NCBI GenBank assembly: GCA_016196885.1
Contig: JACPWU010000020.1
Location: 30,001-62,000, forward strand
DNA: 32,000 bases
Direction of reading: 5' to 3'
From: Chlamydiota bacterium
GTDB taxonomy: Bacteria > Auribacterota > JACPWU01
The position numbers and the translations under genes are program-made. Shown here in pieces: positions 171-31,304 of this stretch. The notes beneath the pieces were generated by a model. The model was not told where the DNA came from. It made no database searches and worked only from the letters and a program-made list of their open reading frames with translations. Numbering within the stretch: the stretch's first letter is position 1; each line of letters begins with the position of its first letter.

Positions 171-205
171 TTTTTAAGAACCTCTCTATTACGTGGTTAT
201 AGCAA

Positions 206-249
206 TAACCCACCTCACCCCGCTTATTTAAGGGGGGAACGGGGGATTA
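206..249. repeat. GC-rich palindromic element, degenerate copy (G1)
   Basis: TAACCCACCTCACCCCGCTTATTTAAGGGGGGAACGGGGGATTA has the same TAAC...hairpin(CCCC..TTA TTT AAGGGG)...GATTA layout as the other copies. It lies in the carB-pyrK spacer. Confidence 0.5.
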
Positions 250-5429: not shown

Positions 5430-6725
5430 TCATGGTTCTTCAATTTTTCCATCCCTCATCACAACTCTACCCGCCACCACTGTGGCCACAGCTTTTCCTT
5501 TCAACTCTCTCCCATAAAAGGGGGAATTCTTGCTCTTAGACTCAAAAAGCTCCTCCCCCACTTTCCACTCTTTCTCAAGATCCAAAATCGTCACATCACC
5601 TATAGAACCCACAGAAAGTTTTCCTCCCGGAAGATTTAGAATTTGGGCAGGTTTTACAGACATTTTTTCAATCCACTGAGAAAGGGTCAAGACACCCGCA
5701 TGAACGAGATGATGGAGCCCCAAGCCGACGGACGTCTCAAGACCCAAAATTCCAAAAGGAGCCACATCAAACTCCACCTCCTTTTCTACCTCTTGATGAG
5801 GCGCATGGTCTGTTGCAATCACATCTATCGCTCCATCTTTAAGTCCCTCCCGAATGGCCTCAACATCTTTTCGAGTTCCGAGAGGAGGATTCATTTTAAA
5901 TTCTGTCCGGTAAGGCGTTATCTCCTCATCTGAAATCACAAAATAATGAGGAGCCGTTTCGGCGGTAACGGAAATGCCGCTCTTCTTTGCCCAACGAATC
6001 AATTCCACAGAGCCGGCCGTACTGACATGCGCCAAATGAAGAGGTGCACCCGTATATTGACTGATCAAAATGTCTCTGGCCACCATGACCTCCTCTGAAA
6101 TGCTGGGTATTCCCTTGAGCCCGCAGGAAGTTGAAGCATATCCTTCATTCATCACCCCTTCTTGAGAGAGGGCCTTGTCCTCGCAATGATCTATCACCTT
6201 TAAGCCAAACATATTGGCATATTCCATCACACGACGCATCATATAGGCATCCGCAATCGGGGCTCCGTCATCACTGATCGCGACCACCCCTGCTTTTTTC
6301 AATTGCCCAATTTCCGTCATCACCTTACCCTCACGGGCCATCGTAGCCGCTCCGATGGGATAAACGCGAATGAGATTTCCTTCCCTCGCCTTTGCCAAAA
6401 CAAATCCGACCGTTCCGGGTTCGTCTATGGCAGGCTGAGTATTGGGCATGCAGCACACGGCCGTAAAGCCTCCTTTAGCCGCAGACTTCATCCCTGTTAA
6501 AATGGTTTCTTTGTGTTCAAATCCGGGCTCCCTTAAATGCACATGAATATCAATAAATCCGGGAGCCACCACCAGACCTTTTGCATCTAATGTGGGAAGA
6601 GAATCGGCTTGAATATTTTTTGCAATTTTTTGAATGACCCCCTTTTCAATCAAAAGGTCTAACACCTCATCTATTTTTTGAGAGGGATCAATCACACGGC
6701 CGTTCTTAATCAAAAGTGTGCTCAT
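5430..6725 (-). CDS. pyrC: dihydroorotase
   Basis: 431 aa with amidohydrolase metal motifs [10 protein letters not shown] and ATDHAPH. There is a 4-nt ATGA overlap with the pyrB stop. Confidence 0.93.
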
Positions 6726-7651
6726 CCTTCTCTCCCCCCACCTGCCACGAGAAAAAGAACCGCCATTCGAACCGCCAGTCCATTCGTCACCTGATCTAAA
6801 ATCACAGAGCGGGGGCTGTCCGCCACCTCACTTGCCAATTCGACTCCGCGATTGATCGGCCCTGGGTGCATGATTAAAACATCTGATTTCGCCTTTTGAA
6901 GCCGCCCACGCGTCATTCCAAAAAGTTCTGAATATTCTCTCAAGGAAGGAAATAAATTCTTTTTTTGCCGCTCGCTTTGAATCCTTAAAAACATCAATAC
7001 ATCAGACTGGGGGATCGCATCATCCAAAGAATTGGAAACGGTTACTCCCAATCTTTCGACCCCTCTGGGGATCAGCGTCTGCGGCCCCACCAGATGCACC
7101 TTCATGCCCATTCGAAGCATTCCAAAAATATTAGACCGGGCCACACGGCTGTGAAGAATATCACCGACAATCGTGGCCTTTAAACCCGTGAGAGATCCCC
7201 TCTTCTGTCGAATCGTAAAAAGATCTACCAAGGCTTGAGTTGGATGCTCATGAGAACCATCGCCCGCATTCACCACCGAAGCTTCTAAATATCTTGAGAT
7301 CAAGTGAGGAACCCCCGAGCATTCATGGCGAACAATCATGCAGTCAATTTTAAGCGCTTCCAAATTTCGAACGGTGTCCTTGAGAGATTCCCCCTTTACC
7401 ACACTGCTTGCCGCAATGGTCACATTCAAAGTATCCGCACTGAGACGTTTTGCCGCCAATTCAAAAGAAGTACGCGTCCTCGTACTCGGTTCATAAAAAA
7501 GGGTGGCCACTGTTTTTCCACGGAGCGCAGGCGCCTTTTTGATCGGACGAATCGAGATGTCTTTGAAGGATTCCGCCGTATCCAAAATAGAGACGATCTC
7601 CTCTGGGCTCAAATCTTCTAAACCCAAAAGATGTTTTCGATGCCAGTCCAT
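6722..7651 (-). CDS. pyrB: aspartate carbamoyltransferase catalytic subunit
   Basis: Motifs [13 protein letters not shown] and HPGP are present. I start at ATG 7651 ([14 protein letters not shown]), 2 nt after the pyrR stop. The track ORF's extra 20 aa overlap pyrR and are probably not translated. Confidence 0.93.
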
Positions 7652-8196: not shown

Positions 8197-8218
8197 TTAA
8201 TCAACCCCATTCGGGCAT

Positions 8219-8318
8219 AAAAAAAGCCCGCTCTTTGAAGAAAGATCAGGCTTCGATAAACGAATAAAAGACCTCATTTTTTCTCCCTTTCCAGCCTCAC
8301 AGGACTGGGATTAAAAGG
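8219..8318 (-). promoter_or_regulatory. PyrR-binding attenuator leader (binding loop plus terminator hairpin and U-run)
   Basis: The minus strand reads CUUUUAAUCCCAGUCCUGUGAGGCUGGAAAGGGAG (8284-8318). This resembles the known PyrR binding-loop motif (..AGUCCAGAGAGGCU..AAGG). It is followed by the hairpin AAGCC..UCUUUCUUCAAAGA..GGCUU and a U7 run ending at 8219, 22 nt upstream of the pyrR ATG. Confidence 0.65.
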
Positions 8319-8364
8319 CAACCTTATTCATCGTATCACCTTGAAATATTTTGTCAATCTTTTT

Positions 8365-8430: not shown

Positions 8431-8712
8431 ATGATCGAAAGCTTTTCTTGCCCAGAAACTGAAAAAGTGTTTAAGGCTATTGGATCAAGAAAATTGCCCT
8501 GGGACATTCAAAGAACTGCAAGAAGGAAACTCCTCTACATGGATGAAGCTAACGATTTGAGGGATTTGATGGCCCCTCCAGCCAATCGACTTGAAGCTCT
8601 GAAAGGAAATCGAGCAGGGGAGTACAGTATTCGCATCAACGAGCAGTGGCACATCTGTTTCAAATGGGAAAGAGGCAAGGCAAAAGATGTTGAGATCACA
8701 GACTATCATTGA
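8431..8712 (+). CDS. higB: HigB-like (RelE/ParE superfamily) type II toxin
   Basis: MIESFSCPETEKVF...RKLLYMDEANDLRDLMAPPANRLEALKGNRAGEYSIRINEQWHICFKWERGKAKDVEITDYH has the characteristic HigB 'plasmid maintenance system killer' layout ending in ..I.DYH. I start at ATG 8431; the track start at 8416 is a TTG. Confidence 0.85.
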   Translation: MIESFSCPETEKVFKAIGSRKLPWDIQRTARRKLLYMDEANDLRDLMAPPANRLEALKGNRAGEYSIRINEQWHICFKWERGKAKDVEITDYH

Positions 8713-9032: not shown

Positions 9033-9068
9033 GGCATAACCCTCGATTTCTGTGCGTTTAATCAGAGA

Positions 9069-9091
9069 AGCGAGTCGTGTCTCGTTTTTTT
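9069..9091 (+). terminator. candidate intrinsic terminator of higBA
   Basis: Short hairpin AGCGAG-TCGTGT-CTCGTT followed by a T7 run. The stem is short, so this is weak. Confidence 0.4.
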
Positions 9092-9113
9092 CCTCCCTCA
9101 AACTCCTCTCCTA

Positions 9114-10055
9114 TCACACCACACTAGAATCTTTCAACCTCTCAACGGCTTTCTTCATATCCTCCGGCATGGGTGCTGTAAAAAGCATCCATTCGTTTTT
9201 AACGGGGTGGGTGATACCGATCTGGGCTGCGTGCAGCATTTGTCTAGAAATCCCTATTTTTTCTGAAAGTTCTTTTCCTCTCTTACCATATCCTTCATCC
9301 CCCAAAACGGGATGGCCTAAATGAGCCATGTGGACACGAATTTGATGGGTTCGCCCTGTTTTTAAAAACACCTTCACCAAGGTCGCCTCATTGAATTTTT
9401 CGACCACTTCAAAAGTGGTGTGTGCAGATTTTCCAGTAGGGATAACCGCCATTTTCTTCCGGTCCACAGGGTGGCGGCCAATGGCCAATTCTAATTCTCC
9501 CTTCAAACTTCTCATTTTTCCCCAAACCAAAGCTAAGTATTGCTTCATCACCTTTCTTTTTTCAAATTGGACTCCGACCTTTCTCAATCCTTCCTCTCTT
9601 TTGGCAACGATGAGACACCCAGAGGTATCTTTATCGAGACGATGTACAATCCCAGGTCTTAAGGGATCATCTGTTGTGGCCAACTGCTGACAATGATGCA
9701 AAATCGCATTCACCAAGGTATGCTCACGATGCCCCGGAGCCGGATGAACCACAAGACCCGGCTGCTTGTTAATCACTAAAATATCTTCATCTTCATAGAG
9801 CACCTCCAGAGGAATATCTTCTGGCAACAATTCTATTTTTTTTGGAACAGGGATACAAACTTCAACCCCTTGCCCTGGCTTCACTAAAAAATGGGCTTTG
9901 CGTAATTTTCCATCAATGAGAACATGGCCTTCTTTGATCAAGGATTGAATTTGTGTTCTGGACATCTTAGGAAATTTTTCAACCAGATAAAGATCGAGAC
10001 GCTTGTCGAAATCCGCAGGATCTACCCGAACCGTCTTAACGATTTCTTCTGACAT
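9114..10055 (-). CDS. rluD: RluA-family 23S rRNA pseudouridine synthase (RluD-like) with S4 domain
   Basis: 313 aa with an N-terminal S4-like region (RLDLYL..., VLIDGK) and the catalytic motif HRLDKDTSG. Confidence 0.9.
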   Translation of the reverse strand: MSEEIVKTVRVDPADFDKRLDLYLVEKFPKMSRTQIQSLIKEGHVLIDGKLRKAHFLVKPGQGVEVCIPVPKKIELLPEDIPLEVLYEDEDILVINKQPGLVVHPAPGHREHTLVNAILHHCQQLATTDDPLRPGIVHRLDKDTSGCLIVAKREEGLRKVGVQFEKRKVMKQYLALVWGKMRSLKGELELAIGRHPVDRKKMAVIPTGKSAHTTFEVVEKFNEATLVKVFLKTGRTHQIRVHMAHLGHPVLGDEGYGKRGKELSEKIGISRQMLHAAQIGITHPVKNEWMLFTAPMPEDMKKAVERLKDSSVV

Positions 10056-10806: not shown

Positions 10807-10822
10807 GAGACCACCTAAATAA

Positions 10823-10965
10823 TAACCCCTCCACCTCCCCTTATGGTTTGCGCCCTGCCGGGCTCCAACCACTTCCTCGTCCACCCGCTGCGACGGGTAC
10901 CCGGACTCGGTCGAAAGGGGAGAGTTTCTCCCCTCTTTAGTTCAAAGAGGGGTTGGGGGAGTTAA
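10823..10965. repeat. GC-rich palindromic element with ~80-nt GC-rich cargo (G2)
   Basis: Termini are TAACCCCTCCACCTCCCC... and ...GAGGGGTTGGGGGAGTTAA, with an internal hairpin CCCCTCTTTAGTTCAAAGAGGGG. It fills the lspA-lgt spacer. Confidence 0.8.
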
Positions 10966-11455
10966 TCTTTTTTTCCTTCAAAAAATATATCCCCAAAAGT
11001 ACCGCCCCTCCTGTAATCGCACTGTCTGCAACATTGAATGTCGGCCACTCGTGGGAGCCGATAAACACCTGAAAGAAATCTATCACAAAATGATACGTGA
11101 TGCGATCCCACAAATTTCCAAGGGCGCCTCCCAAAATCATCCCCAATCCCATCTTCCACAAAATTCCTTTTTTTCCCCATCTAAAATACAAAAATAAAAT
11201 AAGAAGAAGCGAAAAAAGAGTTGTCACTACAAGAAAAAGTCTAGCATTTTTAAAGAGACCAAAAGCGGTTCCCGTATTGTGAACCAAGGCAAGATAAAAA
11301 TAGGGAGGAATCATCTCAATGCGATGTCCTACATTCATCAGCCATTGAGAAAGGAAATGCTTCGTAAATTGATCTAGCAAGAAAATAAAAAGGGTTAAGC
11401 CGAAAAAGAGAACGTGACTTACGCCTTCTTTTTCTTTTCCTGTTCGGATTGGCAT
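10937..11455 (-). CDS. lspA: lipoprotein signal peptidase II
   Basis: Motifs LDQFTK, NTGTAFG and FNVADSAI are present. The start is ambiguous (ATG 11455 or GTG 11464, both overlapping the upstream dksA-like stop). The last 9 aa, INSPNPSLN, are encoded by the repeat terminus. Confidence 0.88.
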   Translation of the reverse strand: MPIRTGKEKEGVSHVLFFGLTLFIFLLDQFTKHFLSQWLMNVGHRIEMIPPYFYLALVHNTGTAFGLFKNARLFLVVTTLFSLLLILFLYFRWGKKGILWKMGLGMILGGALGNLWDRITYHFVIDFFQVFIGSHEWPTFNVADSAITGGAVLLGIYFLKEKKINSPNPSLN

Positions 11456-14977: not shown

Positions 14978-14988
14978 AGAAAATTTTC

Positions 14989-15263
14989 TTAACCCCTCCA
15001 ACTCCCCTTAAATAAGGGGAGAGTAAAAAACTCGCTCTTTCGAGTTCCCCTCTTATTTAATTTTAATGATCCTTCGAGATCATCATGTGCGATGAAAGTT
15101 CTCCCCATTATGTTTTTTGTAGTCGCCCGATTCATCGGGCAATCCATGCAAGGGGCACACGGCAGCCCCATAAATGGGGCGACTACAAGGGTGATTTTCA
15201 TCCCCCTTTGTGCCGACCTCAGTCGGCATGAATGTTTCATAGTAAGAGGGGCTAGGGGAGTTA
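14989..15263. repeat. GC-rich palindromic element (G3), interrupted by a nested REPIN-like element
   Basis: TTAACCCCTCCAACTCCCCTTAAATAAGGGGAG...TCCCCTCTTATTTAA | insert | AGTAAGAGGGGCTAGGGGAGTTA. The uninterrupted equivalent, TCCCCTCTTATTTAAGAGGGGCTAGGGGGGTTA, is seen at 28855-28887. Confidence 0.85.
15059..15240 (+). repeat. REPIN-like element, copy A
   Basis: The core GTAGTC-GCCCGATTCATCGGGC-[23 nt]-A-GCCCCATAAATGGGGC-GACTAC spans 15119-15186. Its flanks are conserved with copy B (about 90% identity over the 5' 60 nt). Confidence 0.85.
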
Positions 15264-15277
15264 GTTTTTTTAATTCC

Positions 15278-17288: not shown

Positions 17289-18704
17289 TTAAAACTCCAT
17301 CCTGTTCATCATCAACCCCGTCATCAACTTCGGATAAAAATCTGTGGACTTCTGGGGCATCCTCTCCTGGCCAAAGGCAACATCCTTCACCTGAAGAGGT
17401 TGAGTCGGATTTAAAAAGAAGGCCAGCTGGGACCCCCCTCGATGAACAGCCTCCAAAGCCTCACCTATTTCCCGACAGTAAGAAACGCACGTTTCATTAC
17501 GCACGGCCTCTGGATCAATCCCCAAAACTTTTTCCAAAATTAAATGGTGTAGAACCACAACGTCCAATCCACGCCAGCCCTGAGAATGCTTCTCCTTAAA
17601 GAAATCTTGGGGCACAGAACTTTTAGGATAATGCAAAAGAACAAATTCATCAGAACCATAGTAAAGACCCAAGGTATGCCCCTCTGGGTCTTCCCCTTTC
17701 ATTTTCTCTCGAATGAACTCACTGCGATGATCTTTAGGAAGCTTCAAACGCTTCGGATGAAAATCCTTTTTCAGCAATTCCTGAAGATTCATCATTTTCT
17801 CATCTGAAACATTTCTCACCAAACGATGCGTCGGCAAAATCACCAATCCCTCATCATATAAATTCACAAAGGCCATCATGGCATAATCAAAGGGCTGACT
17901 TCCATCAATACCCCCTCTTAGATAAGAGGGGTCTGGGGAGTTAATTCCATCAATACCCCCTCTTAGATAAGAGGGGTCTGGGGAGTTAATTCCTTTTACC
18001 CCCTGTATCCTCTTGGCCATCTCCTCACGAAAATTGAGTGCTGTCTCATAACGATGATGGCCATCGGCAATCAATAATTTCTTAGATTTCATCAGGGCCT
18101 GCAATTGAGGCAATACCTCTTTGTCATGAATGGCCCACAAGCGATGATCCACTTTATAATCTTTGTCCGTAAAATTAAACATGGCCTGAGTTGGCCGCTT
18201 AGAATTGAGAAGTTCCATCACCTCCTTCTTACGGTCCTCGTAGAGCATAAAAATCAATCCAAAATGAGTTTGAGTAGCCCTCAAATGATTGAGCCGATCC
18301 GCCTTGGGCTTGGAAAGCGTCTCTTCATGGGGATAAACCTCTCCCTCCCCATATTTCTGAAGGAGCCCCAAGGCAATAAAAGCCTGCCTCTTTTTTCTTT
18401 GCCCAAAAACCGTAAACTCCTGATCGTAGCAATAAATCGCGCTCTCTTGATTTTGAACAAAAACACCCGACTTCACCCATTCTTGAAGAAGCTTTCCTTG
18501 AGTCTCATAAGTCGCGGCCACTTTAGAGGCATGAGAAGAGGGCACCTCTTTTAAAATAAGGCGAACGGCATTGCATGGGTCCCGCGTCAGATAGGATTGA
18601 TAAAGCTTGGCATCAATTTTGTCATAAGGTTGAGTAATGACATTTTCTATCTTTATTTTTTTAGAATTGTAATACGTGCCTTTAAAAGGTTTAATCACTG
18701 CCAT
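17289..18704 (-). CDS. DUF1015-family protein carrying an in-frame repeat insertion
   Basis: 471 aa with the conserved LLIADGHHRYETAL and ILPTHRL motifs of DUF1015. Residues GINSPDPSYLRGGID x2 are encoded by a 2 x 45 bp tandem copy of the GC-rich repeat. Confidence 0.75.
   Translation of the reverse strand: MAVIKPFKGTYYNSKKIKIENVITQPYDKIDAKLYQSYLTRDPCNAVRLILKEVPSSHASKVAATYETQGKLLQEWVKSGVFVQNQESAIYCYDQEFTVFGQRKKRQAFIALGLLQKYGEGEVYPHEETLSKPKADRLNHLRATQTHFGLIFMLYEDRKKEVMELLNSKRPTQAMFNFTDKDYKVDHRLWAIHDKEVLPQLQALMKSKKLLIADGHHRYETALNFREEMAKRIQGVKGINSPDPSYLRGGIDGINSPDPSYLRGGIDGSQPFDYAMMAFVNLYDEGLVILPTHRLVRNVSDEKMMNLQELLKKDFHPKRLKLPKDHRSEFIREKMKGEDPEGHTLGLYYGSDEFVLLHYPKSSVPQDFFKEKHSQGWRGLDVVVLHHLILEKVLGIDPEAVRNETCVSYCREIGEALEAVHRGGSQLAFFLNPTQPLQVKDVAFGQERMPQKSTDFYPKLMTGLMMNRMEF
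17901..17990. repeat. perfect 2 x 45 bp tandem of a GC-rich half-element (G4), in-frame inside the DUF1015 CDS
   Basis: TCCATCAATACCCCCTCTTAGATAAGAGGGGTCTGGGGAGTTAAT occurs at 17901-17945 and identically at 17946-17990. Confidence 0.95.
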
Positions 18705-18735: not shown

Positions 18736-18880
18736 TTAACTCCCCCAACCCCTCTTTCCCGTGGAGACTATAAAAGCTTGAAATAAGAGGGGAGTAGACT
18801 CTCCCCTTATTTCAAGTTCTTACAAGATTTTATAGTCCCCGCGGGATAGTCCCTGTGGGAAAGGGGAGTTGGAGGGGTTA
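18736..18880. repeat. GC-rich palindromic element, long nested palindrome (G5)
   Basis: Termini TTAACTCCCCCAACCCCTCTTTCCC and GGGAAAGGGGAGTTGGAGGGGTTA. Inner inverted repeats GGAGACTATAAAA/TTTTATAGTCCCC and CTTGAAATAAGAGGGGA/CTCCCCTTATTTCAAG surround the centre GTAGACT. Confidence 0.9.
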
Positions 18881-19394
18881 TTTTATTCTCCTTCAATCTG
18901 TTCCTCACCCGATTAAAAAACTCTAACGCCCTCTCATCCTTATAGTCCTGATACGTCCAGGGCCAGGGATGAAAAACTTTATCTTTAAAGTAAAGCGTTG
19001 ATTGAGCGTAAATCCCCCGCCCTAAATAAATTCGATACGTTGCAGGCTTGGTGGTTGCTAAAACAATTTTGTCTAGATCAATATAGCCCGGATCAATGTT
19101 CCAAATTCTGTTCTGGCCTGAGGCCTCTTTTAGTTCCATCTCATTGGAAGCCCATTTTAACTCTCGGATATCTTCCGGAGAAATCAATTTCTCGAAGGCA
19201 TAAAAAGAGCGAATTAAATTTGCCCCCAGTTCAGACTCATAATATTTTGTAAAATCAAAGGGGAAAGGCTCCATTTGATCTTCAAAAGGGCCCCACGCCT
19301 GCTCTAAAAGACCCTCCACCTCTTTTAATCGGGATGGCGCTACAATCACGGCCGCAAAAAGCTTGACTGGCTCAGGAAATCGAGGGGCTCCCAT
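18807..19394 (-). CDS. DUF4416-family protein with repeat-encoded C-terminal tail
   Basis: FDFTKYYESELG...NIDPGYIDLDKIVLATTK...YRIYLGRGIYAQSTL...WTYQDY matches my memory of DUF4416. The last 24 aa (ITPPTPLSHRDYPAGTIKSCKNLK) are read from the repeat at 18736-18880. Confidence 0.6.
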   Translation of the reverse strand: MGAPRFPEPVKLFAAVIVAPSRLKEVEGLLEQAWGPFEDQMEPFPFDFTKYYESELGANLIRSFYAFEKLISPEDIRELKWASNEMELKEASGQNRIWNIDPGYIDLDKIVLATTKPATYRIYLGRGIYAQSTLYFKDKVFHPWPWTYQDYKDERALEFFNRVRNRLKENKITPPTPLSHRDYPAGTIKSCKNLK

Positions 19395-24818: not shown

Positions 24819-24842
24819 CCTTTAAAAGAAATTTCCAATGAT

Positions 24843-25072
24843 CAATAACAAATGTCAAATAAATCTCCAATTCTCCAATGTCCAATTGGATATTGAGTCA
24901 TGGGTCATTCATTTGCTATGAAAGTGAAGCTCATTCTGTAGTCGCCCCATTTATGGGGCTGCCCGATGAATCGGGCGACTACAAAAAAAGCATGATGGGG
25001 AGAACTTTCATCGCACACGATGATCTCGAAAGATCATTAAAATTGATATTTGAAATTGGAAATTTGTCATTG
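24843..25072. repeat. AT-rich word-array palindrome (E3) wrapping REPIN-like copy B
   Basis: The left arm is CTCCAATT CTCCAATG TCCAATTG (24865-24888). The right arm is ATTGATA TTTGAAA TTGGAAA TTTGTCA (25042-25069). The outer ends CAATAACAAAT and ATTTGTCATTG are complementary. It fills the purF-purM spacer. Confidence 0.7.
24900..25044 (-). repeat. REPIN-like element, copy B (inverted relative to copy A)
   Basis: The reverse complement aligns with 15059-15240. The core GTAGTCGCCCCATTTATGGGGCTGCCCGATGAATCGGGCGACTAC spans 24938-24982. It lacks the two 23-25 nt segments present in copy A. Confidence 0.85.
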
Positions 25073-25075
25073 TCT

Positions 25076-26467: not shown

Positions 26468-26487
26468 AGATTAGGATCCTTGTGTAA

Positions 26488-26575
26488 ATTAATTGAAAAT
26501 TGATAATTGAAAATAAATGAAATAATTAATCATTCCTTCATTATCAATTGTCAATTATGAATTATCAATTTTAAA
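26488..26575. repeat. AT-rich heptamer-word palindrome (E4)
   Basis: The left arm is AATTGAA AATTGAT AATTGAA AATAAAT (26491-26518). The right arm is TTATCAA TTGTCAA TTATGAA TTATCAA TTTTAAA (26541-26575). AAAATTGATAATT and AATTATCAATTTT form a perfect 13-bp pairing. It fills the purL-purF spacer. Confidence 0.8.
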
Positions 26576-26581
26576 AAAACG

Positions 26582-28813
26582 CTATACACTCATTTTCATC
26601 CCATTCTCGATCGCCGTTCTCCAAGGTTTTTCAAGCTCCTGCCATTTAGAATCAATGAGTAATTTTCCACCGTAAGAAATTTTTAACTGAGTTCCACCGA
26701 CCATACCCATTTGCACAATATTTGCATCAAAATCTTGAGCCAGTTTTATAAAATCATCTTTCAGTTGAGGCTTCACAGTCACAACCACACGCGAAGGCGA
26801 TTCACCAAAAAGAATTTCATCGCCTCTCAAGCCAGAGGTTTTCAATTCACACAAGGCACCCTTTTTCCCTTGCATCGCACATTCCGCCAAAGCCACAGCA
26901 AGCCCTCCTTCTGAAGTGTCATGCGCACTTTGAAGCCATCCCTTTTGAATCGCCTTCAGAATAAATTTCTGCAATTTCCATTCTTCGTCTAAATCAAAAG
27001 CAGGAAGTGGGCCTTTTTGAATATCTAAAACTCTCCATAAATATTCACTGCCTCCCAATCCTTTGCCAAATCCACCTGTTAAGAAAATTAAATCTCCCTC
27101 TTCCTTAAAAGAGAGGGTCGTAATATCTGATTCTTTTTGAATAAGACCCACCACACCCATCGTCGGGGTCGGAAAAATGGCTCCCTGAGGGCTTTCATTG
27201 TAAAGACTGACATTTCCACCTGTCACAGGAATCTCGAATTTTAGGCAAGCATCTCTAATGGCCTCGATTGCCTTTTGAAGCATCCAAAAACTTTCAGGCT
27301 TTAAGGGATTTCCAAAATTCAAGCAATCCGTAAGACCTACAGGCCTTCCTCCACTGATCACAACATTGCGAGCACATTCTGCCACGGCCATGAGCGTCCC
27401 TTGATAAGCATCTAAATAACAATACCGCCCATTACAGTCACTCGACATCGCCAAATATTTTCCAGCTTCTTTTAGCCTCAAAACAGCAGCATCGGAACCA
27501 GGCAAGACCACTGTGTTGTCCATCACCATGTGATCATATTGCTCATAAACCCATTGTTTGCTGGCAATATTGGGTTCGGACAAAAGTTGAAGCAATTCAT
27601 TTGTATAATTCGATTTTTCTGGGCTTAAGTCAGGAAGCCGATTCACTTCATCCAAATAAGCAGGCCTTTTTGCGGGCCTCTTATAAAGAGGGGCTTCATC
27701 GGTCAATGCCTTAGAGGGAACATCTGCAACCACTTTGCCTTTTTCCTTCACGACCATTCGACCGGTATCTGTGACATGGCCCACCAATGCCGCGTGAAGA
27801 CCCCATTTCTCAAAAGTTTTCAAGACCTCATCTTCTTTCCCCTTTTGGGCAATGACCAGCATTCTTTCCTGAGATTCAGAAAGCATGATTTCATAAGGAT
27901 TCATCCCCGTCTCACGTCTGGGGACTAGCTCTACATCGATTTCAATTCCAGAGTTTCCTCTAGAAGCTGTTTCACAAGTGGAACACGTCAGGCCTGCTGC
28001 GCCCATGTCCTGTACCCCAACGACGCAACCGGGTTTCTTAAAAAGCTCAAGACAGGCCTCCACTAAAAGCTTTTCCATAAAGGGATCCGCCGTTTGAACA
28101 CTGGGCCGATCCTCATGGGATTTTTCGGTCAATTCATCCGATGCAAAAGTAGCCCCATGAATCCCATCACGCCCCGTCGATGAGCCCACATAAAAAACAG
28201 GATTACCCATTCCCACTGCTTTCCCTTTAACCAAATCCTTTTTCCGAGCGATTCCTAAGCAAAACACATTCACAAGCGGATTGGTTGAATAAGATTCCTC
28301 AAAATAGACCTCCCCTCCCACCGTAGGAATCCCAATACAATTACCGTAATGCGCAATCCCTGAAACAACACCCGTCATCAAAGAACGGGTCTTGGCCTCA
28401 TCTAATCTTCCAAATCTGAGAGAATCCATAAGCGCAATGGGTCGAGCGCCCATGGTAAAAATATCTCGAATAATTCCGCCCACGCCTGTCGCAGCACCCT
28501 GAAAAGGTTCAATGGCTGAAGGATGATTATGGCTTTCCATTTTAAAAACGATGCACCAGTCATCCCCAATGTCTATCGCTCCTGCATTTTCCTCTCCTGC
28601 CTTAATTAAAATACCAGAGCCTGTGGTCGGTAATTTCTTCAGTTCTAATTTAGAATTCTTATAACCGCAATGTTCACTCCACATCACAGAAAAAAGACCT
28701 AATTCCAGAAAATTAGGCTCTCTCCCCAAAAAAACTTTAATGCGGTCATATTCTTCAAGGGTTAGACCGTGCTGCGTAATAATATCTTCTGTCATCATCA
28801 TTAAGGAACTCAT
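26582..28813 (-). CDS. purL: phosphoribosylformylglycinamidine synthase subunit PurL (FGAM synthase II)
   Basis: 743 aa with duplicated AIRS-like domains ([21 protein letters not shown]). It follows purQ and purS. Confidence 0.96.
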
Positions 28814-28814
28814 C

Positions 28815-28887
28815 TTAACCCCCCTAGCCCCCCTTAAAATAAGGGGGGAACTACTCCCCTCTTATTTAAGAGGGGCTAGGGGGGTTA
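28815..28887. repeat. GC-rich palindromic element, minimal 73-bp form (G6)
   Basis: TTAACCCCCCTAGCCCCCCTTAAAATAAGGGGGGAACTACTCCCCTCTTATTTAAGAGGGGCTAGGGGGGTTA. The outer arms are perfect complements and there are two inner hairpins. It fills the purQ-purL spacer to within 1 nt of the purL ATG. Confidence 0.92.
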
Positions 28888-29577
28888 TTTCATTATTGCT
28901 TTTATAATGGATTCAAAAATTTTTCTTCCATCTTCTGATCCTAAAATTTGCTCACTCGCCCTTTCGGGATGAGGCATCATGCCCAGCACATTACCCTCTT
29001 CATTGATAATGCCGGCAATATTTTCAAGTGAACCATTGGGATTTGAATCTCGCGTGACCTCGCCTTGTTCATCACAATAACGAAAAACAATTTGCCCCTG
29101 CGCATTCATTTTCTTAAGCACATCTGGCTCGACAAAATAATTTCCTTCTCCATGGGCCACGGGAATTTTTAAAACCTCAGTTTTTTGATATTGTTCGGTG
29201 AATCGCGTCTTCACATTTTCGGGGCGCAAATAAACATATTTACATACAAACTTGAGGGAGGAATTTCTCATCATGGCCCCTGGCAGAAGCCCGGCTTCGA
29301 GCAAAATCTGAAAACCATTGCAAATGCCCAAAACGAGGCCCCCTTTTTTGGCAAATGGCTGAACAGAATTCATCACAGGAGAAAACCGTGCAATCGCGCC
29401 CGTCCGTAAATAATCTCCATAGGAAAATCCCCCAGGCAAAATCACACAATCAAAGTGAGAGATATCCGATTCCTGATGCCAGACATACTCCACCGGCTGC
29501 TTAAGCACATTTTTAATCACATGAAAGCAGTCCGCATCACAATTGGAGCCTGGAAAAACCACCACAGCGAATTTCAT
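28885..29577 (-). CDS. purQ: phosphoribosylformylglycinamidine synthase glutaminase subunit PurQ
   Basis: [14 protein letters not shown]..., GICNGFQ and MMPHPER form the class-I GATase triad. I start at ATG 29577, 4 nt after the purS stop. The track's extra 22 aa overlap purS. Confidence 0.94.
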
Positions 29578-29581
29578 TCTA

Positions 29582-29830
29582 TTAAACCCTTTCCAACTCA
29601 AAGCGATATTGCTCAATAATGGGATTGACCAAAAGCTTCTCACAAATGGACTTCACCTTTTCACTCGCCTCTTTTTCATCACGAGCATCCAAAGCAATCT
29701 CGACATATTTTCCAATCCGAACATCTTGAACGCCCGCATATTGTAGGGTTTTTAAAGCATTTTGAACGGTCAATCCCTGAGGGTCTGAAACCCCTTTTTT
29801 CAATGTCACTTCAATCTTGGCTTTGATCAT
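29582..29830 (-). CDS. purS: phosphoribosylformylglycinamidine synthase subunit PurS
   Basis: [19 protein letters not shown] is the typical PurS N-terminus. ATG 29830 is preceded by GGAG at 7-8 nt. The track start at 29842 has no SD. Confidence 0.9.
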
Positions 29831-29868
29831 ATTTTTCTCCATACAGATAGCTTAGAAAAGAGAAAAGC

Positions 29869-29945: not shown

Positions 29946-31304
29946 TGCGTGAAAAATAGCATTTTTCACGCAAGGGGAACAAGTTTTTTGATTTTGTTGA
30001 TGGCGAACACAAAGACATTTTTATTGGGACTGTTCTTTGGAAATTTGAGAGTGGGAACATTATTTGTGTGTACCAGTTCCCCTGGCACCATAAAAAGCTG
30101 ATGCCGTAATTTGGGAAGGGTTAGAGATTGCCAATGATCTGGCAAGCAAAGTCGTTTGAACCAAGTGATCAGGTTATGTGCTAGGAGAGATAGTTCGGCA
30201 TAAAAGGCATTGGCAACAAAATTCTTTGTGGGGGCACTGCCAAACGGGAAGTCATTTTTGAGGATGCGGATGATTCTTTCTAGATTAGCTCTATCTTTGT
30301 AGAAAGTGAAAATTCCATAGGGAGTTAAAGGTAGGTTTGTTACGATCACTGAATAGGCGTATTTGTCGAGGGTGAATAAGGTGAGTTCTTGATCTGGTTG
30401 CGTCTCGATTTTTCTACGAAGTACGACAAAACGATATTTCTTTTCCCATGAATGGGGCTGATAGAAGAACTCAGCCGTTGAGAATTTTGCGTTAACTTTA
30501 TGGTACCTGAGACCTGACAGACGTCTTTTAATGGGGGCCGTCATTCTGGCCACGATGGTGAAACCAATGCCCGCTGTATCGAGTTCTTTGACAAATTCTT
30601 TCTCGTAGAACCCAGAATCGGCGCGGGTTCTGAGATGATGAGGGTAAGGCAAGAGCTTAATCGTATCACGAAGAAGAGGAATAACTCCCTCAGCTGTGTG
30701 GGCATTGCCGTAACGGAGAAATCCTCCGAGAGCGTCTTTGAGGTGGGCTTCGGTAGCGACAAGGGGATGATAGGATTTTTTGCCAATGTGTCCGGGGTTG
30801 TAACCCTTAACGACGCCTTCCTGATGACCGTAGAGGGTATTGGCGGTGGAATCGAAATCGATGCAGTAGCTGGGAAGAAATGACGGCTGAGTCATAAAAT
30901 ATTTTCGAAGGCTGTTGTGAATTTCACAAAGAGAGGGAGCAAGATCAGGCGCAGATCGAAGCAAAAATCTTCGGAGCGTCGTAGGATTTGGAAAACTTGG
31001 AATACCTGTCAGATATTGGAAAACGCCATTTGTTTTGAGAAGCGCTGAGACCTCGATCTTTTCAAGACCCAGGATCATAGGGTAAATGAGAGCCAGAATC
31101 ATTTCTGTTGTGCTGTACTTGTTGTTCTTTTGGATATAGGCGAATCGACGACTGAGAAAAGTTCGCAGTTGAAGACTTTGAAAAAATCGGTGGAGAAGAT
31201 AAATGCCGCCAAAGTGGGAAAATTTTCCCGCTGTAAAGGCCATGCGAATATTGCTGGCTCCACGACGACGCATTTCACGAACCTAACTAAAAGTTAGGTT
31301 CGTG
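29946..31304 (-). mobile_element. IS1380-like insertion sequence (ends approximate)
   Basis: A single transposase ORF is bracketed by perfect hairpins at 29946-29972 (12-bp stem, covers the stop codon) and 31276-31304 (13-bp stem, 2 nt upstream of the ATG). I could not identify convincing terminal inverted repeats or target duplications. Confidence 0.5.
29966..31273 (-). CDS. IS1380-family (IS4-superfamily DDE) transposase
   Basis: 435 aa. IDFDSTANTLYGHQEGVVKGYNPGHIGKKSYHPL, ..TRADSGFY.. and YKDRANLERIIRILKND (Y-x2-R-x3-E-x6-K) fit the DDE layout I associate with IS1380-type transposases. Confidence 0.75.
   Translation of the reverse strand: MRRRGASNIRMAFTAGKFSHFGGIYLLHRFFQSLQLRTFLSRRFAYIQKNNKYSTTEMILALIYPMILGLEKIEVSALLKTNGVFQYLTGIPSFPNPTTLRRFLLRSAPDLAPSLCEIHNSLRKYFMTQPSFLPSYCIDFDSTANTLYGHQEGVVKGYNPGHIGKKSYHPLVATEAHLKDALGGFLRYGNAHTAEGVIPLLRDTIKLLPYPHHLRTRADSGFYEKEFVKELDTAGIGFTIVARMTAPIKRRLSGLRYHKVNAKFSTAEFFYQPHSWEKKYRFVVLRRKIETQPDQELTLFTLDKYAYSVIVTNLPLTPYGIFTFYKDRANLERIIRILKNDFPFGSAPTKNFVANAFYAELSLLAHNLITWFKRLCLPDHWQSLTLPKLRHQLFMVPGELVHTNNVPTLKFPKNSPNKNVFVFAINKIKKLVPLA

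Follow-up and report, generated by a model that had tools for sequence, protein, structure and literature searches.

A palindromic repeat doublet at the purQ-purL junction of a PVC-group bacterium and its start-associated family

How does a palindromic repeat come to fill the whole spacer between two genes that encode subunits of one enzyme, and how might the second gene still be translated? The question is raised by a 32,000-nucleotide (nt) stretch of a metagenome-assembled genome (MAG; contig JACPWU010000020.1, positions 30,001 to 62,000), referred to here as the window. In the window, purQ and purL are separated by a 72-nt palindrome, which a first-pass annotation had singled out as the source of both the purQ stop codon and the only Shine-Dalgarno-like run upstream of purL. 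The products of purS, purQ, and purL are subunits of a single enzyme, formylglycinamidine ribonucleotide (FGAM) synthase.

The purQ-purL junction and the inserted element

The junction was compared with those of the four closest relatives (L001, L201, L202, and L203; PurQ identity of 75 to 79%), a comparison that the first-pass annotation had suggested. The element was missing from 4/4, and in each of them purQ and purL overlapped by ATGA with zero spacer. In the alignment, about 70 extra bases were found in the window precisely at the overlap, and deletion of either 69 nt (TAAC...GGGGGG) or the entire palindrome of 72 nt restored the purQ frame into the TGA of ATGA; the empty-site comparison allowed insert lengths of 69, 70, or 72 nt. 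The PurQ proteins of the relatives were longer by 2 to 4 residues and ended at the TGA overlapping the purL ATG. In the window, the first in-frame purL ATG (ATG 28813) and A28810 still read ATGA (28813 to 28810), a relic of the ancestral purQ-stop/purL-start overlap. Because the relatives have no spacer and the window keeps the ATGA, the element was recognized as an insertion. By sequence comparison, it was shown that the element entered an ancestral 4-nt ATGA overlap in the lineage of this bacterium of the Planctomycetes-Verrucomicrobia-Chlamydiae (PVC) group and that purQ was truncated by 2 to 4 residues to end at the element's UAA. The choice of purL start codon excepted, the same comparison showed that the insertion pushed the purL start 71 nt from the purQ stop (the interval between that stop and ATG 28813) and placed the element's G-run 5 nt before the old purL ATG. 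The ancestral overlapping pair was presumably translationally coupled. P0001, a protein labelled "MAG: Chlamydiae bacterium," matched the window PurQ with 100% identity, and the nearest species-level genome was a "Ca. Auribacterota" MAG at 75% PurQ identity; both labels lie within the PVC group.

The palindrome, its outer arms, and both inner hairpins described in the first-pass annotation were all found at the place given. The exact palindrome is nested and spans 28816 to 28887 (72 nt), so the earlier extent of 28815 to 28887 held except for one base, T28815, which is unpaired because position 28888 is also T. The outer arms of 16 nt each showed perfect complementarity, falling to 84% when extended to 32 nt, and the arm motif occurred 3 times in the window against 0.11 expected. 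On the plus strand, positions 28815 to 28887 read T-TAACCCCCCTAGCCCC...GGGGCTAGGGGGGTTA, and the full spacer between purQ and purL reads T-TAACCCCCCTAGCCCCCCTTAAAATAAGGGGGGAACTACTCCCCTCTTATTTAAGAGGGGCTAGGGGGGTTA. The inner hairpins are CCCCCCTTA-AAA-TAAGGGGGG (28828 to 28848) and CCCCTCTTA-TT-TAAGAGGGG (28856 to 28875). The claims about the two ends also stood: the purQ TAA (28887 to 28885) comprises the element's first three bases in the mRNA sense, T28815 lies 1 nt from the purL ATG, with the palindrome 2 nt away, and GGGGGG is the sole purine run between the purQ stop and ATG 28813. This run pairs with CCCCCC (28879 to 28884) inside the long stem, and RNA folding predicted that it would be sequestered there, as had been proposed.

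The 72-nt element was resolved into two 40-nt family units in inverted orientation with a common 7-nt centre. This assignment was based on a covariance model, R1, trained exclusively on 100 units of metagenome and phage origin from outside the window, which matched both halves of the element at full length (Table 1; the E-values are rough). In the mRNA sense, the purL-proximal unit consists of the hairpin CCCCCCUUA-UUU-UAAGGGGGG followed by CUA, GGGGGGUUA, and AG-AU(G). The second unit consists of the hairpin CCCCTCTTA-TT-TAAGAGGGG followed by CTA and GGGGGGTTA.

The 40-nt unit and its association with gene starts

Units outside the window were collected from at least 120 metagenome contigs (by a right-arm pattern scan), 40 IMG/VR phage contigs, and 3 named-MAG loci. 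The loci were picked by an exact 20-nt pattern, and conservation inside that pattern is therefore uninformative; all counts for metagenome units and doublets are among the matches listed, and the ORF-based start and stop calls are mechanical (ORF, open reading frame). The unit comprises a 9-bp G+C/TTA hairpin, three bases, and a GGGGRGTTA tail (GGGGAGTTATG), with the 40-nt consensus aTtCCCCTCTTA-AGa-TAAGAGGGG-yNA-GGGGAGTTATGAa. Most copies were singlets, and about 21 inverted doublets of 47 to 136 nt were found. The stems occurred in two compensated versions, CCCCTCTTA/TAAGAGGGG and CCCCCCTTA/TAAGGGGGG, and doublets combined one stem version of each, as does the window element. An excess of C-to-T changes in the 5' arm (21 versus 4) is compatible with G-U tolerance, but transition bias confounds it, and it was not used.

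To examine the position of the unit relative to genes, long ORFs starting 0 to 30 nt downstream on the same strand were counted, with the other side and strand of the unit as the control. Such starts followed 29/55 phage units compared with 2/55 controls (Fisher test, 5e-9), nine of the 29 being at the ATG of GTTATG itself, and 24/134 metagenome units compared with 2/134 controls (4e-6). Orthologous phage genes opened with GGGGAGTT-ATG-ATT-GAA..., the tail thus comprising the ribosome-binding site and start codon. The stop codon of the upstream phage gene often lay 2 to 10 nt before the hairpin, so that the unit occupied the whole spacer. Unit and gene were co-oriented at 57 loci and opposite at 18. 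As the family tail precedes starts elsewhere, the proposal that the G-run upstream of purL is a functional Shine-Dalgarno-like sequence was supported. Several window genes likewise use G-rich Shine-Dalgarno sequences (e.g., GGUGGGGGGAGAGAAGG before the AUG of pyrC). The ATG of GTTATG was rejected as a general gene start, because it opened a long ORF (at least 100 codons, or at least 60 at a contig end) in 7/134 metagenome units and mostly tiny ORFs otherwise; it was a true start mainly in phage contigs.

Several variants of the start arrangement were seen in phages. In contigs L220, L221, L227, L230, L233, L238, L242, and others, the tail was sometimes duplicated, giving GGGGAGTTATGAA-AAGGGAGTT-ATG. 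In many phage copies, a two-codon mini-ORF, ATG-AAA-TGA, overlapped the real start (ATGAAATGAAC). In phage contig L208, long ORFs diverge from a 47-nt palindromic doublet (5794 to 5840), beginning 0 and 9 nt from the respective ends, and the doublet appears to be a two-way start module.

The distribution of the unit was broad. The relative L201 carries one doublet (8469 to 8548) upstream of purS, and at six metagenome loci the unit adjoins a gene for the fumarate hydratase beta subunit, whose product is 90 to 94% identical to Dehalococcoidia/Chloroflexi MAG proteins. A Chloroflexi MAG contig (GCA_001796515.1; L244) has eight units within 18 kb, which share a single strand whatever the gene direction, and the phage contig L221 carries the unit together with an HK97-type capsid gene. 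By these sequence matches, the family occurs in two or more bacterial phyla (Dehalococcoidia/Chloroflexi and the PVC group) and in phages. The 50,697 GenBank phage records gave no unit match, and a full-text literature search with unit sequence strings returned unrelated papers only. In Rfam, the element matched no family at the gathering threshold and gave generic long-hairpin microRNA (miRNA) models alone, all below threshold; none of 18 unit-bearing loci reached the threshold, and over the whole window only PyrR did so. In L244, two regions (7240 to 7630 and 10880 to 11350) are an intergenic mosaic of several small repeats that include the 40-nt unit, GTAGTACGAGGC-type REPs, and a "cattgcgaggagc...gcaatg" palindrome, and some L244 units are split in the loop by a "gtcctgagcgaagtcgaagga" insert.

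In the window, repeat search and R1 together located six family loci (Table 1), among which the purQ-purL element is the shortest complete form; the earlier description of a dispersed family was thus confirmed. At the lspA-lgt junction, the copy encodes, at 10937 to 10965, the last 9 codons and TAA of lspA, and lgt retains its own AGGTGG Shine-Dalgarno sequence downstream of the copy. At the DUF4416-DUF1015 junction, the copy encodes, at 18807 to 18882, the last 24 residues and stop of the DUF4416 protein, for which a homologue ends KDKMAAKNI*; the public record MBI1883400.1 contains the element-encoded tail. Inside the DUF1015 gene (ORF 17289 to 18704, minus strand), INSPDPSYLRGGIDG occurs twice, adding 30 residues in a variable loop that are missing from 8/8 homologues (434 to 453 amino acids [aa]). 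TTCC microhomology at the half-unit boundaries there suggests that the tandem half units arose by slippage duplication. The terminal TAA is used as a stop codon in the purQ copy alone, and two other window copies give internal stops. Supply of stop codons by the copies is therefore common, and supply through the terminal TAA occurs only at purQ.

A second, unrelated repeat family in the window consists of GTAG-type REP doublets (TGTAGTCGCCCGATTCATCGGGC/GCCCCATAAATGGGGCGACTACA) at 15113 to 15188 and 24929 to 24991, one inside the 14986 to 15267 copy and the other in the purF-purM spacer. They have a common 60-nt flank with 93% identity (15059 to 15118 versus 24985 to 25044).

The minus strand is the G-rich one and carries all of the window genes; besides purS, purQ, and purL (Table 1), purF, purM, and purH were identified with NCBIfam. 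The purL-purF spacer (26468 to 26581; 114 nt) and the purF-purM spacer (24819 to 25075; 257 nt) are long and contain AT-rich CAATTG-type repeats (25037 to 25066 versus 26545 to 26574). In L202 and L203, purL and purF overlap by 19 nt. The junctions of the whole pur operon in the window organism have been expanded. In L201 (77% identity), a PIN/RHH toxin-antitoxin pair on the opposite strand (9063 to 9724) has been inserted between purS and purQ. Elsewhere in the window, a PyrR-binding attenuator RNA (Rfam RF00515; 60.2 bits; 8217 to 8322, minus strand) was found upstream of pyrR-pyrB-pyrC-carA...carB.

Table 1. Coordinates of the genes, start and stop codons, and repeat-family copies in the window
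Feature	Position	Strand	Remarks
purS	29582-29842	-	NCBIfam
purQ, FGAM synthase glutaminase subunit	28885-29577	-	NCBIfam NF002957, 345.6 bits
purL, FGAM synthase subunit II	26582-28813	-	NCBIfam NF002290, 1004 bits; model begins at residue 17
purQ stop TAA	28885-28887	-	First three element bases in mRNA sense
purL first in-frame ATG	28811-28813	-	Two bases past palindrome
Alternative purL ATG (MMMTED...)	28799-28801	-	Public annotation
GGGGGG run, Shine-Dalgarno-like	28819-28824	-	5 nt upstream of ATG 28813
purL-proximal unit	28812-28851	-	R1 top window match, 44 bits, E = 1.7e-11, full length
Second unit	28853-28891	+	R1 41.3 bits, E = 1.2e-10
Diverged single-hairpin copy	202-249	-	27 nt past carB stop; R1 20.3 bits
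Copy of ~145 nt with internal insert	10821-10968		lspA-lgt junction; R1 39.1 bits
Copy of ~280 nt	14986-15267		14 nt past proC TAA; GTAG-type REP doublet nested within
Two tandem 45-nt half units	17900-17992	+	In frame inside DUF1015 gene
Long palindromic form, 147 nt	18736-18882		DUF4416-DUF1015 junction

Predicted fold, proposed purL coupling, and alternative explanations

The 72-nt RNA had a predicted minimum free energy of -57.3 kcal/mol (z = -6.6), and in its context the value was -61.5 kcal/mol (z = -7.4), with 0/200 shuffles as good; folded as DNA, the same 72 nt gave -31.1 (z = -7.2). The most stable structure was a single long hairpin (-57.3 kcal/mol). A three-way fold with the outer stem and two inner hairpins was feasible at -49.2 kcal/mol but less stable and was not adopted, and the inner hairpins by themselves gave -28.8 kcal/mol. 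With the left arm masked, the residual local hairpin over the ribosome site was -6.9 kcal/mol.

From these values, a mechanism may be proposed. In free mRNA, the element would form one 33-bp hairpin of about -57 kcal/mol that pairs the UAA with a UUA two bases before the AUG, and with the G-run buried in it, new 30S subunits would be largely shut out. A ribosome reading purQ to the UAA would hold the left arm in its mRNA channel. The right arm would thereby be freed to behave like an ordinary unit of the family, in which the hairpin is local and the G-run exposed before the AUG, and the -6.9 kcal/mol hairpin would be the sole remaining competitor. In this way, purL could stay coupled to purQ by unmasking across a hairpin with adjacent ends, in place of the former ATGA coupling. 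The insertion would have been tolerated because a stop codon and a ribosome site both came with the element. Such coupling would be worth keeping, as purQ and purL encode subunits of one enzyme. Confidence in the coupling step itself is moderate, given how little the modelled unpaired probability of the G-run rises when the left arm is masked (see below), and the explanation as a whole, an inserted palindromic doublet with purL coupled to purQ by unmasking, is judged to have a slightly better than even chance of being right.

The start codon of purL matters to this explanation and is ambiguous on sequence alone, since both candidate ATGs share one frame. ATG 28813 with its G-run exists as the first-pass annotation had described, but the public annotation begins at ATG 28801, although this codon has no Shine-Dalgarno-like sequence of its own within 5 to 13 nt. 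Start 28813 is favoured by the ATGA relic, by the G-run 5 nt upstream, by the tail-to-start distance of 0 to 5 nt in the family, and by an N-terminus of 16 residues before LTLEEY, equal in length to that of L201. Start 28801 is favoured by the choice of the annotation pipeline, by more room from the stem, and by the N-termini of the relatives, which fall between both.

A number of observations weigh against the coupling explanation. The public purL start (MBI1883406.1) is 12 nt downstream of ATG 28813 and in frame with it; the resulting 739-aa PurL is on record exactly (MBI1883406.1 and MBI3266134.1), and no public record matched the 743-aa PurL from start 28813. The PurL N-termini of the relatives, with 13 to 16 residues before LTLEEY, are compatible with either start. 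Use of Shine-Dalgarno sequences in this genome is patchy: many window genes have none, and the purL G-run may therefore matter little. In the model, masking of the left arm raised the unpaired probability of the G-run only from 0.26 to ~0.31, with local re-pairing. The terminal TAA served as a stop codon in 2/21 doublets, the purQ copy being one, and a start was abutted only by the purQ-purL copy and that of L208. The idea of doublets as designed stop-plus-start cassettes was therefore rejected, and the stop-plus-start bridge at purQ-purL would be a lucky fit rather than a family design. Finally, the empty-site comparison with relatives revealed no clear target duplication at the element, and no transposase, RAYT (Y1_Tnp), or integrase was found among 150 ORFs neighbouring units in other contigs.

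Part of this evidence would fit a tolerated passenger, i.e., selfish or neutral DNA whose G-run and fold are incidental, with purL translation beginning at ATG 28801 or 28813 through either ordinary initiation or simple re-initiation. The start called by the Prokaryotic Genome Annotation Pipeline (PGAP) at 28801 is 14 nt clear of the stem, Shine-Dalgarno use is patchy, genes beside other window copies (lgt and DUF1015) keep their own Shine-Dalgarno sequences, and family copies land anywhere, coding sequence included. However, the lack of a Shine-Dalgarno-like sequence before ATG 28801 counts against it, as does the start association of the family tail elsewhere, and a helix of -57 kcal/mol that ends 2 to 14 nt ahead of the start would probably affect initiation. 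This account is considered rather unlikely. The same helix, being long and near perfect, might instead act in RNA processing or stability, either as a duplex cut by RNase III that splits purSQ from purLF and frees the purL site by cleavage or as a 3'/5' stabilizer. Correia elements, known from Neisseria, bind RNase III, are cleaved or protected, and alter the expression of adjacent genes (PMC2649163; PMC2229807). The phage units, which fill stop-to-start spacers (2 to 10 nt plus the unit), also resemble processing sites. Against this, single units are the commonest form and have a 9-bp stem only, which is too short for RNase III, and processing as the explanation is thought quite improbable.

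The first-pass annotation had given the termini of all copies as 5'-TTAAC...GTTAA-3' and had derived from them a TAA/TTAA-type target that would explain frequent coincidence with TAA stops. The shared core of this description was recovered, in that all window copies end TAAC...GTTA, but TTAAC and GTTAA occur together at none of them; the end pairs were ATAAC..GTTAA, TTAAC..GTTAG, and TTAAC..GTTAT (twice), and the consensus of the wider family is ATAAC...GTTAT. The two deductions were not supported: TTAA stood on both sides of no window copy, and the terminal TAA was the stop of an incoming long ORF in 1/140 metagenome units. A miniature inverted-repeat transposable element (MITE) derived from a DDE transposon targeting TTAA or TAA was accordingly regarded as very unlikely. 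In its favour, TA is present at both ends of every window copy (TA-AC to GT-TA), as would fit the TA duplication of many bacterial MITEs (PMC2229807), and by sequence logic a TAA stop would survive if TA|AC...GT|TA were put into its TA. A TA duplication is indistinguishable from the palindrome, however, because the terminal TA belongs to it, and the empty-site comparison at DUF4416 permits a duplication of 0 to 4 nt. One-hairpin singlets far outnumber doublets, a pattern not typical of elements that have terminal inverted repeats at their ends. The neighbours of the units were housekeeping genes (fumarase, RadC, GAPDH, PGK, S2, EF-Ts, and SecA), with no transposase among the 150 adjacent ORFs. 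The sole transposase gene of the window, of the IS1380 family (29966 to 31273, minus strand; NCBIfam), lies just upstream of purS and is flanked by perfect 12- to 13-bp hairpins (29946 to 29972 and 31276 to 31304); its ends are unrelated to the repeat family, and it was rejected as the parent.

The location and the alternative folds (long hairpin or two inner hairpins) would suit a cis-regulatory RNA that the pur operon had ancestrally, for instance a purine-responsive switch, and that the relatives have lost. The family distribution effectively refutes this reading, leaving a negligible likelihood: the same family is found at unrelated loci, in coding sequence, and in phages, the element is missing from four relatives, and nothing in Rfam beyond the generic hairpin models matched. 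A known RNA family or riboswitch was rejected for want of any Rfam match at the gathering threshold, as was an intrinsic terminator, since the element is followed by AGAUGAGUUCC with no U-run and gave weak matches only inside its centre.

Relation to known repeats and implications

REP, BIME, and REPIN elements are known from enterobacteria and Pseudomonas, where they are mobilized by RAYT Y1 transposases, and BIMEs contain Y and Z unit types. The family resembles them in its short imperfect palindromic unit with a conserved flanking tail, in its density in intergenic DNA with other repeats nested in copies, and in the two unit types of the doublet (CCCCCCTTA stem versus CCCCTCTTA stem), which recall Y and Z. 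As in those systems, singlets are numerous, and inverted doublets form a single long hairpin (PMC3116915, PMC3337134). It differs in having the tail GGGGAGTTA, which serves as ribosome-binding site plus ATG, instead of a GTAG tetranucleotide (GTAG belongs to the separate window family), and in having no RAYT among the 150 neighbouring ORFs in other contigs. Nor is it strictly extragenic, as it lies in frame in DUF1015 and has replaced the C-termini of DUF4416 and lspA. Whereas REPIN families have been described as lineage bound and vertically inherited, this unit is common to Chloroflexi, PVC-group MAGs, and phage contigs.

Bacterial MITEs (Correia/NEMIS, ERIC, and RUP) are similar in their length of ~70 to 150 nt, terminal inverted repeats, and 5'-TA-3' termini and in their long stem-loop transcripts, which are co-transcribed, fused to ORFs, and able to alter the expression of neighbours (PMC2229807). 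They likewise occur as multiple dispersed copies in one genome, comparable to the six loci in 32 kb here. Unlike them, the family shows no demonstrable target duplication and no parent insertion sequence (IS) with the same ends in the window, and what is repeated is a 40-nt unit with one hairpin instead of an element delimited by terminal inverted repeats. Rickettsia palindromic elements (RPE) offer a parallel for in-frame insertion in a conserved protein gene (here, the two 15-residue repeats in the DUF1015 loop), but they are unrelated in sequence, host, and size, and most copies of the present family are intergenic.

The closest published analogue for start association in one orientation is found in Cluster K mycobacteriophages, whose start-associated sequences (SAS) are asymmetric repeats with a Shine-Dalgarno core directly upstream of the start codons of a subset of genes; nearly all share one orientation, an inverted repeat (ESAS) lies ahead of about half of them, and the upstream stop is sometimes inside (PMC3203893). 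The SAS consensus is GGGATAGGAGCCC, compared with GGGGAGTTATGAA (GGGGAGTTATG) here. Unlike the ESAS arms, which show no co-variation of an RNA hairpin, the stems here occur in two compensated versions. SAS is confined to one phage cluster, whereas the present unit also occurs in bacterial chromosomes and forms doublets; it behaves like SAS while falling outside that class. Integron attC sites are likewise imperfect palindromes with ends ...AAC and GTT..., and same-orientation intergenic copies are seen in some contigs; this class was rejected because the ends are ATAAC/GTTATGA rather than RYYYAAC/GTTRRRY, the context is housekeeping, and no integrase was found among the 150 neighbouring ORFs. 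By analogy, the architecture is thus nearest to REP/BIME/REPIN doublets and bacterial MITEs, and the behaviour also resembles that of RPE and SAS/ESAS. The element fails the defining features of each: GTAG is lacking, no RAYT was seen, neither a target duplication nor a parent IS is proven, and the consensus differs. It is classed among the small palindromic repeats, as a variant with a ribosome-binding site in the unit, shared across phyla and with phages.

REPs and MITEs are usually viewed as junk tolerated only between genes; here, one landed in the 4-nt overlap of two subunit genes. Its survival in the ATGA overlap would be explained by its own stop and ribosome-binding sequence and by a hairpin that keeps the old stop and start adjacent. 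For annotation, the family carries a warning: starts, stops, and C-termini beside such repeats are element encoded, and the public calls of genes at these places are uncertain, as with the start of purL.

The unit is abundant in Dehalococcoidia and PVC-group MAGs and lies directly before structural genes in uncultured phages. More tentatively, and with doubt outweighing belief, the 40-nt unit may be a portable gene-junction cassette (hairpin, ribosome-binding site, and start) that spreads horizontally among phages and Dehalococcoidia/PVC bacteria. Its doublet, having a stop and a ribosome site at opposite ends, would be insertable even between overlapping genes, and the hairpin might be recognized by a mobilizing enzyme or by a translational or RNA-stability factor. 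If this were true, host housekeeping genes and phage late genes would be tied to one signal. Whether such units are mobile expression signals, whether phage and host share them, and whether REP-like families cross phyla are questions that can now be tested.

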